From assembly GCA_951406725.2 (NCBI GenBank), contig OX597841.1, positions 25,916,001-25,980,000 on the forward strand: DNA of 64,000 bases, in the 5' to 3' direction. Origin of the DNA: Octopus vulgaris. Taxonomy: Eukaryota. Positions within the stretch are counted from its first letter, which is position 1; every line of letters starts with the position of its first letter. The notes beneath the pieces were generated by a model that was not told the DNA's origin, did not search any database, and saw only the letters and a program-made list of their open reading frames with translations. Shown piece by piece: positions 11,130 through 48,930 of the stretch. Position numbers and translations under genes: made by a program.

Positions 11130-12465
11130 CCCTTTTGATATGAAACTGCCTGAGACAATTCTTTGAAATATGATATAAATTTCCAGTTTTAAAATGGTCT
11201 AAATTAAAACCTTCGGATCTTTTCAGTTTGAACAGTAGTTTTTTCTAGCGGTGTCATATGAAATTGTCACCCATAATTATGACCCTAGTATCGATCTATT
11301 GCACTTCAATCTGTTTTAGGGTTAGGGTTAGTTAGGGTTAGGGGTAGGGGGAAGGGTATCTTTTTTTCTTCACAAATGTAAATAAACCCAATCTGTTTCT
11401 TAAACGAGGGACATATGTGGCACAGAATGTTTTTTTTCCTCAATAGACTGTCATTGATTGGTTGAAATTGCAAAAATTGTCACCCATAATTATGACCCTA
11501 GTATTGATCTATTGCATTTCAATCTCTTTTAGGGTTAGGGGTGGGGGGAAGGGTAGCCTTTTTTCTTGAGAAATGTAAATAAACCCAATCTGTTTCTTAA
11601 ACGAGGGACATATTCATACGGTACAGAATGTTTTTTTACCTCAAGAGAGGTAAAATATCTTACAAACTATAGAATTTTCTCAATAAAGCCAAGAGAAAAA
11701 GATGTTTTATAAACACATTTTACCAGTATACGAAGTTTTAAATTCTTTAGTTACCTAGAAATTATGTTAAAAACTGCCGTTCAAACCGAAAAGATCCTAA
11801 ACCCAATCTGTTTCTTAAACGAGGGACATATTCATATGGCACAGAATGTATTTTACCTCAATGGACGTCAATGATTGGTTGAAATTGCAGAAATTGAAGA
11901 AAAAAACAACAAATATCTTACAAACTATAGAATTTTCTCAATAAAGCCAAGAGAAAAAGATGTTTTATAAACACATTTTACCAGTATACGAAGTTTTAAA
12001 TTCTTTAGTTACCTAGAAATTATGTTAAAAACTGCCGTTCAAACCGAAAAGATCCTAAACCCAATCTGTTTCTTAAACGAGGGACATATTCATATGGCAC
12101 AGAATGTATTTTACCTCAATGGACGTCAATGATTGGTTGAAATTGCAGAAATTGAAGAAAAAAACAACAAATATCTTACAAACTATAGAATTTTCTCAAT
12201 AAAGCCAAGAGAAAAAGATGTTTTATAAACACATTCTACCAGTATACGAAGTTTAAAATTTTTTAGTTACCTAGGAATTATGTTAAAAACTGCTGTTGAA
12301 ACAGAAAAGATCCAAACCTTCTTCCATCAAAATTTTGTGTTAATTTATGTTCAAAACACCAGCTTAATAATTACGAAATTAGTTTATTCAATTTTCATTA
12401 TTTTTCTGAATTAATTGAGACAAAGTCAGTGTGTTTTAATAGTGAAATGGTAACAAAAAGGTTAA
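11130..12465. mobile_element. Old AT-rich MITE-like repeat (piggyBac-like ends), split by the 11215-12313 insertion; related copy at ~10810-11040
   Basis: AAATTAAAACCTTCTTCC...ATGGTA(G/A)CAAAAGG shared by both copies; ends CCCTTTTGATA...AAAAAGGTTAA. Confidence 0.45.
11215..12313. mobile_element. Merlin-like (GG-terminal) MITE with 8-bp TSD, TTAGGG tract and triplicated right end
   Basis: TIRs GGATCTTTTCAGTTTGAACAG...CTGTTGAAACAGAAAAGATCC; TSD AAACCTTC at 11207-11214 and 12314-12321; right TIR also ends at ~11797 and ~12056. Superfamily is inferred from the GG ends and 8-bp TSD. Confidence 0.8.
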
Positions 12466-12571
12466 TTAATAATGACACAGTATTTGACGGAATTCTCCGT
12501 CGATATTTTCTAAATTGATTAAAACAAATTGACGGCAACAAATGGGAAAGTTTGACCTTTGCAAGCAAAGG

Positions 12572-12696
12572 TCTGTACCTCTGAAAAACCTAAACCTTGT
12601 GTATAATATGCACCACTTCTCTAACTTGAGTCAAGGAGGTCTATATAGCGTCCTTGGTTTGTAAAACTGTATACAGTAAATGTCCTTTATTATTAT

Positions 12697-12735
<39 letters not shown>

Positions 12736-12967
12736 GCACATACATATATACATACACACACACATATATCTATATCTATATATACACATATATGCACATG
12801 CACACATATATATACATACACACACGCATGCATATATATATATACACACATAGTATACACACAAAAATATATACATATATTTATATTATATAAATACATA
12901 CATATATACATACACACACACATACATATATCTATATCTATATATACACATATATGCACACACACAC

Positions 12968-13060
<93 letters not shown>

Positions 13061-13194
13061 TGCACACGCACACATATATATACATACACACACACATGCA
13101 TATATATATATATACACATAAAAATATATACATATATTTATATTATATAAATACATACATAGATACATACACACACGCACACATAAGCTCTACA
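12572..13194. other. Composite insertion: Tc2-MITE fragment (12572-12698) plus inverted copies of 10462-10630
   Basis: CTGTACCTCTGAAAAACCTAAACC matches the 13405-14200 units; CACGCACACATAAGCTCTACA (to 13194) is the reverse complement of TGTAGAGCTTATGTGTGCGTG (from 10462). Confidence 0.75.
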
Positions 13195-13404
13195 TGGGGA
13201 CATGTTTGTTTATTTGGACATGTTCGGTTCATTTGGTCACTTCAGGATTGTACATTCCAACTAGGTTATTTTGTTAAGGTTATTTCTGCAGATATTCTTC
13301 TAGAAATTATATCCAACACTAATTTTTGCTACAGCATTTTGTACACAAGACATCAGATGTAAACAAACAATGAGATTGAAGATAAACATTGGGTAATGGG
13401 TATA

Positions 13405-14530
13405 CCATAAATCCTCGAGTATAGTCCGCCCTTGAGTATAATACGCAGGGGAATTTTAGGGGCTGTACCTCTGAAAAACCTAAACCTTGTGTATAATACT
13501 CACCCCTTCTCTAACTTGAGTCAAGGAGGTCTATATAATGTCCTTGGTTTGTAAAAATGTACCGTAAATCCTCGAGTATAGTCCGCCCTTGAGTATAATA
13601 TGCAGGGAATTTTTAGGGGGTCTGTACCTCTGAAAAACCTAAACCTTGTGTATAATACGCACCCCTTCTCTAACTTGAGTCAAGGAGGTCTATATAACGT
13701 CCTTGGTTTGTAAAAATGTACCATAAATCCTCGAGTATAGTCCGCCCTTGAGTATAATATGCAGGGGATTTTTAGGGGGCTGTACCTCTGAAAAACCTAA
13801 ACCTTGTGTATAATACGCACCCCTTCTCTAACTTGAGTCAAGGAAGTTTATATAACGTCCTTGGTTTGTAAAAATGTACCGTAAATCCTCGAGTATAGTC
13901 TGCCTTTGAGTATAATACGCAGGGGAATTTTAGGGGGCTGTACCTCTGAAAAACCTAAACCTTGTGTATAATACGCACCCCTTCTCTAACTTGAGTCAAG
14001 GAAGTTTATATAACGTCCTTGGTTTGTAAAAATGTACCGTAAATCCTTGAGTATAGTCTGCCCTTGAGTATAATATGCAGGGGATTTTTAGGGGGCTGTA
14101 CCTCTGAAAAACCTAAACCTTGTGTATAATACTCACCCCTTCTCTAACTTGAGTCAAGGAGGTCTGTATAATGTCTTTGGTTTGTAAAACTGTATATGGT
14201 AACGTCCTTTATTATTATTGCAAACGTGTAGCTTTTTTGTGCATTTTGTTTGCAGAAAATAAAGAAATAACAGTAATAACATTTAATAAATGTTGCTTAC
14301 TGCAAGTTATGGATGATTCTTTTATGACTTCATTGCTTTCTGGCTTAGCTTAAGGTATTTTCACGCCCGACATCACAAGATGCATCTGAATAAAAATTGC
14401 TGAACAACAAATAGACTCAGACATTGCTTAGAAAATAATTTTCATTTTTAACCTCGTATATAGTACACACTAGGGATTTTGACCTTGAAATTTTGGGGAA
14501 AAAATGCGAATTATACTTAAGGATTTACGG
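13405..14530. mobile_element. Tc2-like (TcMar) MITE, TA TSD, left end tandemly repeated 5x (~158 bp)
   Basis: TA|CC(G/A)TAAATCCTCGAGTATA starts at 13405, 13562, 13721, 13879 and 14037; right TIR TATACTTAAGGATTTACGG|TA ends at 14530. CCGTA termini are typical of Tc2/Kanga-type elements. Confidence 0.85.
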
Positions 14531-14952
14531 TATAGGCCATATTTCGAGGGGTCTTGTCCTTTCATTAACAGCTATGTAATCCATTAATCGTCTTGTATAT
14601 GAAATGCTGTAGCAAAAAGAATCAGTGTTAGGCATAATTTGCATAGAATATCTATAGAAATAATCTTAACAAAGTAATATACAAGGCACTGCTAACACAG
14701 GAGGATGTAGTGTTGACTTATAAAAACATTTAGTATGTTTTATAGCATATAATGGTTGCATAACAAAATACCACGTACCTACAAATCCTTAGTATTCTAA
14801 CTAAGGTTTCCAGGTTTGTCATCCAAGACTTTTACGTATAGACAAACATTAAGGAACAATTTTTGGTCATCGTTATAATTTGCACAATTCCAAATTGAAT
14901 GGGTGGGGAAAAAGAATGCTAAAGGATTAAGAATGAATCGCTTAAATGTCCG

Positions 14953-15198
14953 TTGCAGCATGGAAGGGGTTTATAAGCCATTTAAAAAACACACAAAAGC
15001 CATTAGATTCACTTCAACATTTAAATTTAATTTGTCAAAATATTTTTGTTGCTTTGAAACTGTGACCATTTTGTCAGTGAACAGGTTGTGGTTTCAAAGC
15101 GATGAAAATATTTTGACAAATTAAATTTCAATGTTGAATTGAATCTAATGGTTTTTGTGTGTTTTTTAAATGGCTGATAAACACCTTCCATGCTGCAA
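14953..15198. repeat. ~246-bp imperfect palindrome (Penelope-like fold-back)
   Basis: TTGCAGCATGGAAG...GCTTTGAAAC versus GTTTCAAAGC...CTTCCATGCTGCAA; arms ~110 bp. Confidence 0.85.
15070..15120 (+). ncRNA. Type I hammerhead ribozyme fold with G3-C8 swapped core
   Basis: TTTGTCA | GTGAACA | G GTTGT-loop-GCGAT | GAAA | ATAT | TT | TGACAAA: 7-bp stem I and palindromic AATATT stem III. Confidence 0.6.
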
Positions 15199-15326
15199 TT
15201 GTTTTTGTTTCAACACACGATCTCAGATTAAGTCACTTGCTATGCAAGTACATCTTTATAGTTCTTAAATTTCATTTATATGCTTAACAGGGAAGACTGA
15301 TATAGATCTGTTGGCAAAGGGGAACC

Positions 15327-15368
15327 ACTATGGACATGTTTCAAACTCTCTAATCTCATCAGCACAGT
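15327..15368 (-). ncRNA. Type I hammerhead ribozyme (canonical core, weak stem II)
   Basis: Minus strand ACTGTG | CTGATGA | GATTAGAGAGTTT | GAAA | CATG | TC | CATAGT; 6-bp stem I, ACATGT palindrome, GUC site. Confidence 0.6.
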
Positions 15369-15573
15369 ATTATTCTAACTAAAATTGCCAGATATAACAA
15401 CCAAGATTTTCTCATTTAGACAAGCGGTTTCACACAATATAATTGTTATAATTGATACAATTAAAATAGAAAGAGGTGACGAAGGATGATTTCCAGAAAT
15501 TAAAAATTAATGTTTCAAAGTTAATTTACATGCTTAATGGGACAAGTCTGGTCTTTGCAGGCAAAGATGGACA

Positions 15574-15618
15574 GCTATGGACAAATGTTTTGACTTATTT
15601 GGTCCTCATCAGAATTGT
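15574..15618 (-). ncRNA. Degenerate hammerhead motif
   Basis: Minus strand CTGATGA | GGAC-loop-GTC | AAAA (GAAA mutated) | CATTTG | TC | CATAG. Confidence 0.45.
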
Positions 15619-15736
15619 ACAAACTTTTACTAAGCTTTTCAGGGTAGTCACTGATGATTTTTGCATATCGAAGAAACTTTTGTGAATAATTTCTTAATGG
15701 GCAAGCTTGAGCATTGTTTGCAGGCAAAGGTGAAAA

Positions 15737-15779
15737 ACTATGGACATATTTCAGTCTATGTGACCCTCATCAGGACAGT
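15737..15779 (-). ncRNA. Type I hammerhead motif (canonical core)
   Basis: Minus strand ACTGTC | CTGATGA | G GGTC-ACATA-GACT | GAAA | TATG | TC | CATAGT; one mismatch at the base of stem I. Confidence 0.55.
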
Positions 15780-16088
15780 ACATTCCAACCAAACTTGTCA
15801 ATTTAGTCGGCAAAAGTTTCCACTTACAGTAAAACCATTGTGAATAATTTCTGCTCGTTATAATTCACATAATAAAATAATAAAACAATAATTAAAAAAA
15901 TAATAAAACAATAATAAAAAAATAATAAAAAAAATAAATAAAAAGAGCAACGGTAACCAGCTCATATTTGACATTGATATAAATTTGGAAATTATGTTAT
16001 TTAATTAAGTTTTAATTATTGTTGATCTTTGTTACTCCATGTACTATTTCATTATTATGTATTGTTTTTGCTATATATTTAACTATAT

Positions 16089-17050
16089 GTTTTATTGTGT
16101 CTTGGGAAGTTCATTATGCCAATAATTATAAACACACGCACAGGTTCAATTCCACTTCTTTATTGCTATCAATTGGTTAAAAAATCTAACCAACTAATTA
16201 ATTGATTGTTTGTTTAATGTGTTTGTTAAATAATTAATTGGTTGTTTGTTAGTCAAAGCTTGTTTGTTGCTGTTTGCAACCTTTTCAGTGACTTTTTTTA
16301 ATGTTCATGTTCAGACTCTCCCCAAACACAACAAAATTTGTTTTAAGACAAGTTCACATTAAGAATCTTGCAAGCCAAATAAAAAGAAAATGAAGTTTAA
16401 AAATGTGTCCATATTTTTATTGTAGTTTTGTTATGTCTTGGGAGGGTCATCACGCCAATAACAATACCAACAACACAAGCACTGTCTAATTCCATTGTTA
16501 GTCAGCTGAAACAACTAACTAATCAGTCATTTGTTTAATCTGCTGGTTAAACAATCAATCGATTGTTTGTTAGTCAAATCTTTTTATTTGCTGTTTGTCT
16601 CCTTTTTCTGTGATTTTTAAAATTATTGGTGTTAGAACTCTCCCAAGACAACAAAATTTGTTTAAACATAAGAAATTCAGATCAAGAATTTTGCAAGCCA
16701 AATAAAAAGAAAATGAAGTTTAACAATGTGTCCGTATTTTTATTGTAGTTTTGTTATGTTTTGGGAGGGTCATCACGCCAATAACAATACCAACAACACA
16801 AGCACTGTCTAATTCCACTTTATTGGTAGAACTCTCCCAAGACAACAAAATTTGTTTAAACATAAGAAATTCAGATCAAGAATTTTGCAAGCCAAATAAA
16901 AAGAAAATGAAGTTTAACAAAATGTCTGTGTTTTTATTTGTGTCTCAGGTGGGGCTGTTATGCCAAAATAACACATGCACTGGCTCAATATCACTTCTTT
17001 ATTGTTTGTCAATTGGTTAAATATCTGACCAACTGACTAATCAACTGTTT
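16089..17050. repeat. Diverged tandem array (~330-bp units, 3-4 copies) of a MITE-like element
   Basis: TG(T/C)(C/T)TTGGGA(A/G)G...CTCTCCCAA(G/A)(A/C)ACAACAAAA inverted pair in each unit; GCAAGCCAAATAAAAAGAAAATGAAGTTTAA at ~16370, 16693 and 16887. Confidence 0.7.
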
Positions 17051-17054
17051 ATCG

Positions 17055-17285
17055 TTTTACCTTTTGCTTGTTTCAGTCATTAGAATTGTGGCCATGCTGG
17101 GGCACCGCCATGAAGAATTTTTAGTCAAATGAATCGAACCCCAGTACTTAAGTTTTTTTTAAGCCTGGTACTTAGTCTATCGGTCACTTTGCTGAACCAC
17201 TAAGTTATGGGGACATAAACACACCAACACCGGTTGTCAAGTGGTGGTAGGGGGACAAACATAGACACAAAGATGCACACAACAC
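17055..17285 (-). mobile_element. SINE family A-related 3' half
   Basis: TTGTTTCAGTCATT...GGCCATGCTGG...GGTTGTCAAG...GACAAACATAGACAC. Confidence 0.8.
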
Positions 17286-47880: not shown

Positions 47881-48194
47881 AGAAACATGTATTTACATCA
47901 AATACTACACCGGCACCCAATTATGCTTTTTTAAAGAGTTTATGGAGTGTAGGCTAAATTTGGTGTTTAAGGAATTTTTTTCAAATTTATATTCTAAAGG
48001 TATTTAATGGCGTTGCCCCAGCATGGCCGCAGCCTCAAGGCTGAAACATATAAAAGAATAAAAGAATCGTATATTTGTTTTGGTTTCAGATTCAGAGTGT
48101 CCCACATTTTAAATTACTCTCGAGCGGCGCTTCTTTAAAATAAAGCTTTTTAATCATTTTTGTGTGTTTCTTAAATGGCTTATAATAAAAGTTT

Positions 48195-48618
48195 GGCGAT
48201 CTTTCGTCTCTAGTAGACCTTCCGTCGATTTCCGTAAAATTTTTTTTTTTTTAACATATGGGCTTGCGGGAACTTTTGAAGTAATATACATACATATACA
48301 CATACACCGAGTAAAAAATTTCAGTTATCACTTTCTTTCACACATTACTCTGTCTCTTCACACACACTAACAGAAGCACTTCACTTACACAACATACTGT
48401 CTGTCTCCCACACCCCATCAAACACACACACACACACACATGTACATCAATGCTTCACATGCACGGTAACTTCAAAAGAACTTCCCTCGTCATACAATCG
48501 CTTTCTCTTAGTCTCTTTCGCTCTCATTACTTCAAAAGTTCCCGCAAGCCCATATGTAAAAAAAAAAAATTTTTTTACGGAAATCGACGGAAAGGTCTAC
48601 TAGAGACGAAAGATTGCC
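48195..48618. mobile_element. Intact Merlin-like MITE with 8-bp TSD
   Basis: ~90-bp TIRs GGCGATCTTTCGTCTCTAGTAGACC...GGTCTACTAGAGACGAAAGATTGCC; TSD AAAAGTTT at 48187-48194 and 48619-48626. Confidence 0.9.
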
Positions 48619-48930
48619 AAAAGTTTATTCCATGCTGCAATAGTTTTTAATCATTTTTTTCCCTCAAATGTTTACCCACCCTGTTATCATCACTGAATTT
48701 TTTTCTGTTTGTTATTTTTTGTCATGTACTGCTCCACATTTTTAAAACACTTGTAAATTGTATTTATTTCAGAAAAAAATTGAGAAAAACAAAAAAAAAC
48801 TACCATGCATAGATCAAAATTTTTCAGTTTTTCAGGGATTTCTTAAAACATTAAACGAAGTGGAAGAAGGAAATTTTTTCTGTAAAAATCGTCTTACATG
48901 TATTTCAAAATGCGAAATGCCTTTACGTAA

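Follow-up and report, generated by a model that had tools for sequence, protein, structure and literature searches.

A decayed tandem array with type I hammerhead remnants in Octopus vulgaris, possibly a fossil retrozyme, and an abundant inserted repeat with a G3-C8 hammerhead-like motif

A stretch of 64 kb from Octopus vulgaris (contig OX597841.1), here called the window, was analysed around a decayed head-to-tail array on its minus strand. Table 1 gives an overview of the array units and of the repeats inserted between them. The original prediction of three adjacent minus-strand units spaced by about 245 and 165 nt was confirmed: their CTGATGA motifs start at 15773, 15612 and 15362, 161 and 250 nt apart, while the distances between the predicted cleavage sites are 163 and 247 nt. 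In each of units A, B and C the minus-strand CTGATGA is succeeded, at a distance of 13–14 nt, by a GAAA-like box together with TGTCCATAG. CTGATGA alone is not enriched in the window (14 occurrences, 11.4 ± 3.6 expected). The composite core (13–14 nt spacing plus GTH) was found twice in 13200–17100 and never in 1.56 Mb of shuffled sequence, both strands being searched.

Table 1 Features of the array and of the repeats that interrupt it (positions within the window)
Feature	Position	Strand	Remarks
Unit A	15693–15868	−	CTGATGA at 15773–15767, C17 of GUC at 15743
Unit B	15520–15694	−	CTGATGA at 15612–15606
Unit C	15256–15519	−	CTGATGA at 15362–15356, C17 at 15333
Abundant inserted element	14953–15261		between unit C and fourth unit; Penelope-like insertion pattern
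G3-C8 type I hammerhead-like motif	15070–15120	+	GUGAACA at 15077–15083; predicted cut after 15113
Fourth unit, upstream part	14787–14952	−	without hammerhead core
Nested later insertions splitting the fourth unit	12581–14786		from repeat comparison, TRF and contig cover
Mid-copy repeat	14590–14786	+	
Mid-copy repeat, inverted partial copy	13266–13351	−	matches 14590–14677
158-bp tandem repeat, five copies	13403–14194		95%
Fourth unit, hammerhead remnant (D)	13193–13266	−	CTGAAGT at 13245; putatively joined to 14787–14952
TA/CA microsatellite	12699–13169		
Fourth unit, downstream flank	12527–12580	−	severed by microsatellite and piece of 158-bp repeat

The units are homologous beyond the motif itself, so that the first condition named as refuting the original prediction, units that fail to align outside the motif, does not apply. 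Flank segments chosen by eye were aligned pairwise and compared with 500 shuffles. Among the upstream segments A, B, C, E and D, taken without the motif, four of ten pairs exceeded all shuffles (A/B 37 against a shuffle maximum of 35, A/E 45 against 34, B/E 49 against 38, C/E 77 against 52), as did four of six downstream pairs (39–40 against maxima of 28–34). No alignment above the 500 shuffles was obtained for B/C upstream, for C/D downstream and for all four pairs including sequence upstream of D; the latter sequence is an inverted copy of another repeat. The spacers had been described as heavily diverged, and they are, yet with a pairwise identity of 55–61% (71–76% in the best pairwise alignments) their common descent is still recognisable. 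The flank distance between units corresponds to a JC value of about 0.27, resting on three or four copies. From B to C the monomer measures 247 nt (GC 32%); the A-to-B monomer (GC 34%) is down to 163 nt after the loss of about 85 nt from the upstream part of unit B.

A split unit and a further partial unit had also been claimed. Their pieces are real, but they likely represent a single broken fourth unit, which makes four units and not five. The piece at 14787–14952 covers no more of a unit than its upstream part, and it stops where the D motif starts. Its end and the start of D have the 12–13 letters CCT(T)AGTT(A/G)GAAT in common, and for this reason the two pieces, together with the downstream flank, are read from the sequence as one unit probably split by insertions. 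A profile built from six pieces revealed no further unit copies in the window, TRF reports no array at 15265–15880, and both array ends sit in low-complexity or decayed sequence. Among 14 informative columns the site patterns group AC with BD eight times, AB with CD three times and AD with BC three times, which is not significant.

A remnant of a type I hammerhead is present in all four units, whereas the complete CTGATGA...GAAA motif originally assigned to each of them was found in A and C only. Unit A has all 12 core letters and a helix II of four pairs after a single unpaired G; its helix I has five pairs, yet a C.C opposition at the pair beside the cut site. In unit C the core is complete, helix I pairs over seven contiguous positions and helix III is palindromic (ACAUGU), and helix II is weak. 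In unit B the GAAA box reads AAAA, so that G12, the general base of the hammerhead, is replaced by A; furthermore, helix III carries a 2-nt insertion and helix I is broken. Remnant D reads CTGAAGT, has lost one letter of GAAA, and its helices I and II are broken. Thus the 12-letter core is complete in two of the four units, each of them with a damaged stem. The view of an old and largely dead locus is borne out by this damage.

The helices pair in 34 of 46 cells (73.9%) over the four units compared to 16–38% after sliding by 1–3 columns, a test that is favoured by the structure having been drawn from these same four sequences. Helix III is paired in all eight cells. The unpaired letter at 9/10.1 is clear in A and B only, and the pair 10.1–11.1 is G.Y in every unit (G-C in two, G-U in two). 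An alternative register of helix II with a CAAAUA hexaloop pairs in 32 of 44 cells with no two-sided changes. The two registers pair about equally, the one with the unpaired letter A9/G10.1 being the better. Covariation over four units does not exceed shuffles (262/500), although stem II looked striking by eye.

Departures from the column majority affect 2 of 47 core letters compared to 117 of 521 flank letters (Fisher p=0.002), a contrast that is biased by the units having been found by their core. It is partly a matter of ascertainment, and the units may come from active copies that had already diverged. The 5′ strand of helix I and helix II have diverged to the extent of the flanks (50–64%). 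Rfam gave no match at the gathering threshold in the 64 kb; relaxed to E≤10 on 15200–15900 it returned two rows, both of unrelated families and neither a hammerhead. Single units fold with z-scores of +0.2 to +1.1, and the circular minimum free energy of the predicted monomers, which are decayed copies, is no better than that of 100 shuffles each (z −0.84 and +0.88).

Twenty public runs from ten studies and two organisms contain 57–71% of the sampled words; none is recorded as RNA, 15 of them are RNA by guess only, and the set does not bear on expression either way. Four runs were compared at a likeness of at least 80%. The records were filtered, the DNA run was read to about 80%, and its depth does not equal copy number. 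Summed depth in this run is 42–161 over unit C, similar to that of the unique stretch 14817–14933 (53–77), and climbs to 730–1190 at 15480–15557. A variant at 15512 is common to 16 of its contigs, and one record links a C-like core to a B-like downstream part via 37 other letters. These sequences point to diverged relatives of the array unit elsewhere, and no abundant young family was seen among them. A young homogeneous family left no sign in the DNA run at an identity of at least 80%, where just diverged fragments appeared.

One contig of run X4, from the second organism and of guessed kind, spans 15181–15865 with four differences and is unbroken over all three predicted cut sites. The locus is present in two organisms at about 1% difference. 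No conclusion follows from gaps in cover, which take in most of A–C in X1 and X6 and four bins of X11 that are low or empty. The joints listed (15 of 74) and the joint fillings listed (12 of 44) include none of a monomer circle.

No reverse transcriptase or GIY-YIG domain was detected by Pfam in 60 of 194 complex ORFs, which include all 13 listed between 10786 and 17017; the scan returned a single irrelevant match below threshold, far from the locus. No ORF remnant lies beside any array unit, and the frames over the units are broken. We considered the upstream part as the tail of a GIY-YIG domain on account of a CLxEK-like stretch, a motif which we take to be a mark of this domain. The frames disagree between units and a stop follows 10 codons later; phmmer with the 52-residue frame, a search of low power, returned two repeat-summed unrelated matches, and the idea was rejected as unsupported. 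All three matches to a repeat-derived frame from the window are predicted proteins of Octopus vulgaris and O. bimaculoides, in agreement with an octopus as host.

A pattern scan of metagenomes yielded six loci, none of them tandem and none of the octopus array family. Two of the six come from one and the same stretch, whose hammerhead resembles a Penelope end, and four lack convincing helices. The same kind of scan gave 0 and 0 matches in viral contigs and 0 in prokaryote genomes. Metagenome contig L001 (and L004), animal-looking DNA, carries four minimal hammerheads resembling Penelope ends within 6 kb (3001–3040, 1396, 3474, 4906).

Several other repeats surround the array. The mid-copy repeat splits the fourth unit at an apparent duplication of 12–13 nt and is possibly a second Penelope-like insertion in the array. 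A young tandem repeat (258 bp, 2.6 copies, 98%) occupies 11653–12318; its ends and those of the 158-bp repeat presumably recall DNA-transposon and Helitron-like elements. Runs of TTAGGG are present at 11316–11349. Unit A is closely preceded, on its upstream side, by another, separate tandem repeat (16089–17050); this one too is diverged, with 3–4 copies of about 323 bp that are 78–94% alike, and the descriptor found no hammerhead in it. At 48150–48640 an element with long inverted ends is nested within a further, incomplete member of the abundant insert family.

This family is represented in the array by the element between unit C and the fourth unit. Its right arm (15069–15198) has a one-sided extension to about 15261, and its left arm (14953–15068) is inverted, 5′-truncated and 86.6% identical. 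An inverted 5′-truncated copy and a one-sided tail of 30–40 bp typify Penelope-like insertions (Craig et al., 10.1101/2021.04.23.441226). The insert matches this pattern, although its tail of about 60 nt is longer than described. In the DNA run it attains a summed depth of up to 2.5 million, which exceeds that of the array by four to five orders of magnitude, bearing in mind that depth is not copy number. The insert could alternatively be a foldback DNA transposon, which we regard as unlikely: a TA-like flank past its outer end would agree with such an origin, but the one-sided tail and the hammerhead motif would be left unexplained.

A descriptor that allows any Watson–Crick 3–8 pair finds exactly one motif in the window, inside the insert at +15077. 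This sole descriptor-perfect type I hammerhead of the window had been overlooked in the original prediction. It has G3-C8 instead of C3-G8 (CUGANGA), which is still a Watson–Crick pair, followed by an unpaired G, a helix II of five pairs (15085–15089 with 15099–15103), GAAA, a palindromic helix III and a helix I of seven pairs. In 1.56 Mb of shuffled sequence no motif as strict occurred, and eight looser ones did. Related contigs of the DNA run convert two G.U pairs of helix II into G-C, C making up 95% of summed depth at 15087 and 75% at 15103, which is position 11.1 and U in the window copy. Positions 15077 and 15082 show no variant among the 40 of 91 variant rows listed, and the contigs suggest that G3-C8 is the family state of the insert. 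The folding z-score of the motif is unremarkable (−0.49), and Rfam misses it; the 20 rows at E≤10 are mostly hairpin miRNA models. The motif is predicted to cut after 15113.

In the 3′ part of the insert (15170–15265, +) a 32-codon frame is open from an ATG and could start a Penelope ORF; it has no match in PDB or the ESM Atlas, and searches with frames of the insert gave no matches. At 15116 an A>G change accounts for 67%, 21% and 66% of summed depth in three guessed-RNA runs versus 6% in the DNA run. It would keep helix I paired as G.U and could reflect A-to-I editing of the inverted repeat, an expressed subfamily or alleles.

Compared to the hammerheads of Penelope terminal repeats (pLTRs), the insert motif shows the unpaired letter at 9/10.1, G10.1-C11.1 (in the related contigs), a palindromic helix III and a five-pair helix II. 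Nevertheless, its unpaired letter is G where the consensus is H, a G that also occurs in the Nasonia entry of PMC4209133; G3-C8 is absent from the 56 motifs in Fig. S3 of that paper, in which U3-A8 occurs; and unlike in Penelope elements no ORF adjoins the insert. Natural U3-A8 hammerheads have been published (PMC3088659; PMC4209133), and in an Anolis Penelope element cleavage is partly recovered when both core letters are exchanged (C3G/G8C; PMC11167929). Literature searches, PMC3884650 included, turned up no natural animal G3-C8 family; supplements of related papers could list some. We see an even chance that this very abundant Octopus repeat is a Penelope-type element with a fixed natural G3-C8 type I hammerhead, inserted in the fossil array of an older, undescribed cephalopod retrozyme.

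For the array itself we lean, with somewhat better than even confidence, towards a fossil non-LTR retrozyme that would derive from a Penelope-like terminal repeat. This reading builds on the flank homology above shuffles, on the helix pairing above the slid controls together with the better kept core, and on the 247-nt period (the 163 nt being explained by deletion) and GC of 32–34%, which fit the range in PMC7229834. It further relies on the lack of reverse transcriptase and GIY-YIG domains in the scanned ORFs and on the diverged relatives elsewhere. The JC value lies near a Penelope-like expansion reported for O. vulgaris at JC 0.2 (PMC13282606), and retrozymes have been argued to be non-autonomous Penelope derivatives (10.64898/2026.07.22.740005). 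Against it stand the silence of Rfam, covariation not above shuffles, monomers that are not unusually folded, and no abundant close family, as the depth of unit C and the insert illustrates. Furthermore, the better register of helix II includes the unpaired A9/G10.1 letter, so the units may be plain Penelope ends.

The original proposal is supported in that a cephalopod hosts tandem non-coding units of retrozyme size and GC content with one type I hammerhead remnant each. Of the traits of metazoan non-LTR retrozymes (size and GC after PMC7229834), head-to-tail units of 150–450 bp, GC below 50%, one type I hammerhead remnant per unit and non-coding sequence are all found, while these decayed copies do not form the highly self-paired monomer. 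With regard to an active retrozyme in the sense of 10.64898/2026.07.22.740005, a TRF array is lacking, and so are two consecutive complete motifs, because B, which lies between A and C, is without G12. Searches of the literature on octopus or cephalopod retrozymes or hammerheads yielded no earlier description of the array family; supplementary lists of related preprints could hold cephalopod motifs.

We envisage that the active family was once transcribed as multimers, which would then have been cut at each GUC, probably as dimeric hammerheads since the palindromic helix III has just two pairs. The monomers were possibly circularised, and a Penelope reverse transcriptase would have returned a multimer to the genome as a DNA copy. 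Afterwards the locus would have lost about 85 nt from one unit and received at least three insertions. No unit-length circle is predicted to arise from it today, because B and D are predicted to be dead and A and C are not adjacent, each having a damaged stem; the one product predicted for the locus is an A-to-C piece of 410 nt.

A serious rival, although clearly the less probable reading, is that the units are pLTR fragments of an extinct autonomous Penelope-like element, multiplied by partial-tandem insertion or local duplication and never an independent circular RNA. The unpaired 9/10.1 letter, G.Y at 10.1–11.1 throughout and the small palindromic helix III fit Penelope hammerheads, the relatives are seen as dispersed fragments, the site patterns lean, without significance, to an AB-to-CD duplication (8 vs 3 vs 3), and the birth of satellites from pLTRs has been proposed (10.64898/2026.07.22.740005). 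However, no ORF remnant accompanies any unit and the one frame searched met unrelated proteins; four units read through at a period of about 250 nt; and the 6–7-pair helix I of unit C as well as the CAAAUA-like loop II (exact in B) recall canonical satellite hammerheads. The opposition of retrozyme and Penelope end on which the original prediction relied is weakened in any case, as retrozymes are argued to derive from Penelope terminal repeats (10.64898/2026.07.22.740005).

It is improbable that unit A or C still cuts and serves a host transcript as a retained processing signal. The core is far better kept than the flanks, unit C retains its core, seven helix I pairs and helix III, natural hammerheads with a two-pair helix II exist (PMC3088659), and the locus persists in two organisms with about 1% difference. 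But helix II and the 5′ strand of helix I have diverged like the flanks, core conservation is expected from ascertainment or from source copies already diverged, and the X4 contig, of guessed kind and of either strand, runs unbroken across the three predicted cut sites. An ordinary old tandem duplication with a chance likeness to hammerheads would agree with unenriched CTGATGA, silent Rfam, unremarkable unit folding and four of six metagenome matches to a similar pattern without convincing helices, but it is very improbable given that the two core boxes and GUC coincide at the correct spacing with a palindromic helix III and a paired helix I, that 1.56 Mb of shuffles contain no such core and that pairing collapses on sliding.

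Taken alone, the array presumed to be a fossil retrozyme places octopus among the many animals in which hammerhead tandem repeats are already known, and it is too decayed to raise a new question; cephalopod hammerheads are on record already for the giant squid, whose genome has 235 Rfam hammerhead-1 loci (PMC6962438). Its mixed anatomy, a canonical-like helix I and loop II with the extra letter of Penelope hammerheads, offers one mollusc test of the Penelope-origin proposal. The G3-C8 insert matters more. If it is real, a variant that the literature knows chiefly as a rescue mutant made in the laboratory would have a natural family of genome scale, one that escapes both Rfam and searches based on CUGANGA. 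Should so large a family have the swap fixed and still cut, standard descriptors undercount animal hammerheads, and the family provides many natural variants for probing the 3–8 pair and for asking what the ribozyme does in Penelope transposition.

Animal non-LTR retrozymes are tandem repeats of 150–450 bp with less than 50% GC and type I hammerheads; they are processed to monomers that become circles, and they probably owe their mobility to Penelope-like elements. Their units measure 220–245 nt in coral, 350–390 nt in mussel and 330–350 nt in axolotl (Cervera and de la Pena 2020, PMC7229834). The array resembles them in its tandem non-coding unit of similar size, its low GC, one type I hammerhead per unit and the short palindromic helix III. 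It differs in that its units are 25–40% diverged, complete motifs do not stand side by side, the monomers are not unusually self-paired and no close family of high abundance was seen; octopus was not encountered among the species described there. Hammerheads whose helix III is short and palindromic cleave preferentially as dimers (Cervera and de la Pena 2014, PMC4209133). Such a helix III together with an unpaired letter at 9/10.1 marks pLTR hammerheads (PMC4209133); the array has the palindromic helix III and, clearly in A and B only, the unpaired letter, and differs by the lack of an adjacent ORF.

The type I hammerhead of Schistosoma Sm-alpha has the loop II CAAAUA and a GUAC tetramer upstream of the core (PMC2632901). 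The loop recurs in the array, exact in B and with one change in A and D, and GUAC is present in three of four units. Unlike in Sm-alpha, GUAC is 4 nt from the core, within a six-pair helix I, and the CAAAUA register pairs worse, for which reasons a loop–loop contact stays a candidate. Li, Clavereau and Pollet (2026, 10.64898/2026.07.22.740005) traced retrozymes to pLTRs; 75% of their families reach at most seven units, and one of nine tested dimers cut. No mollusc term occurs in that text, and the array would fail its filter of a TRF array and two complete motifs. Like these families, nevertheless, the array is short, is predicted to be largely non-cleaving and is probably of Penelope-like origin.
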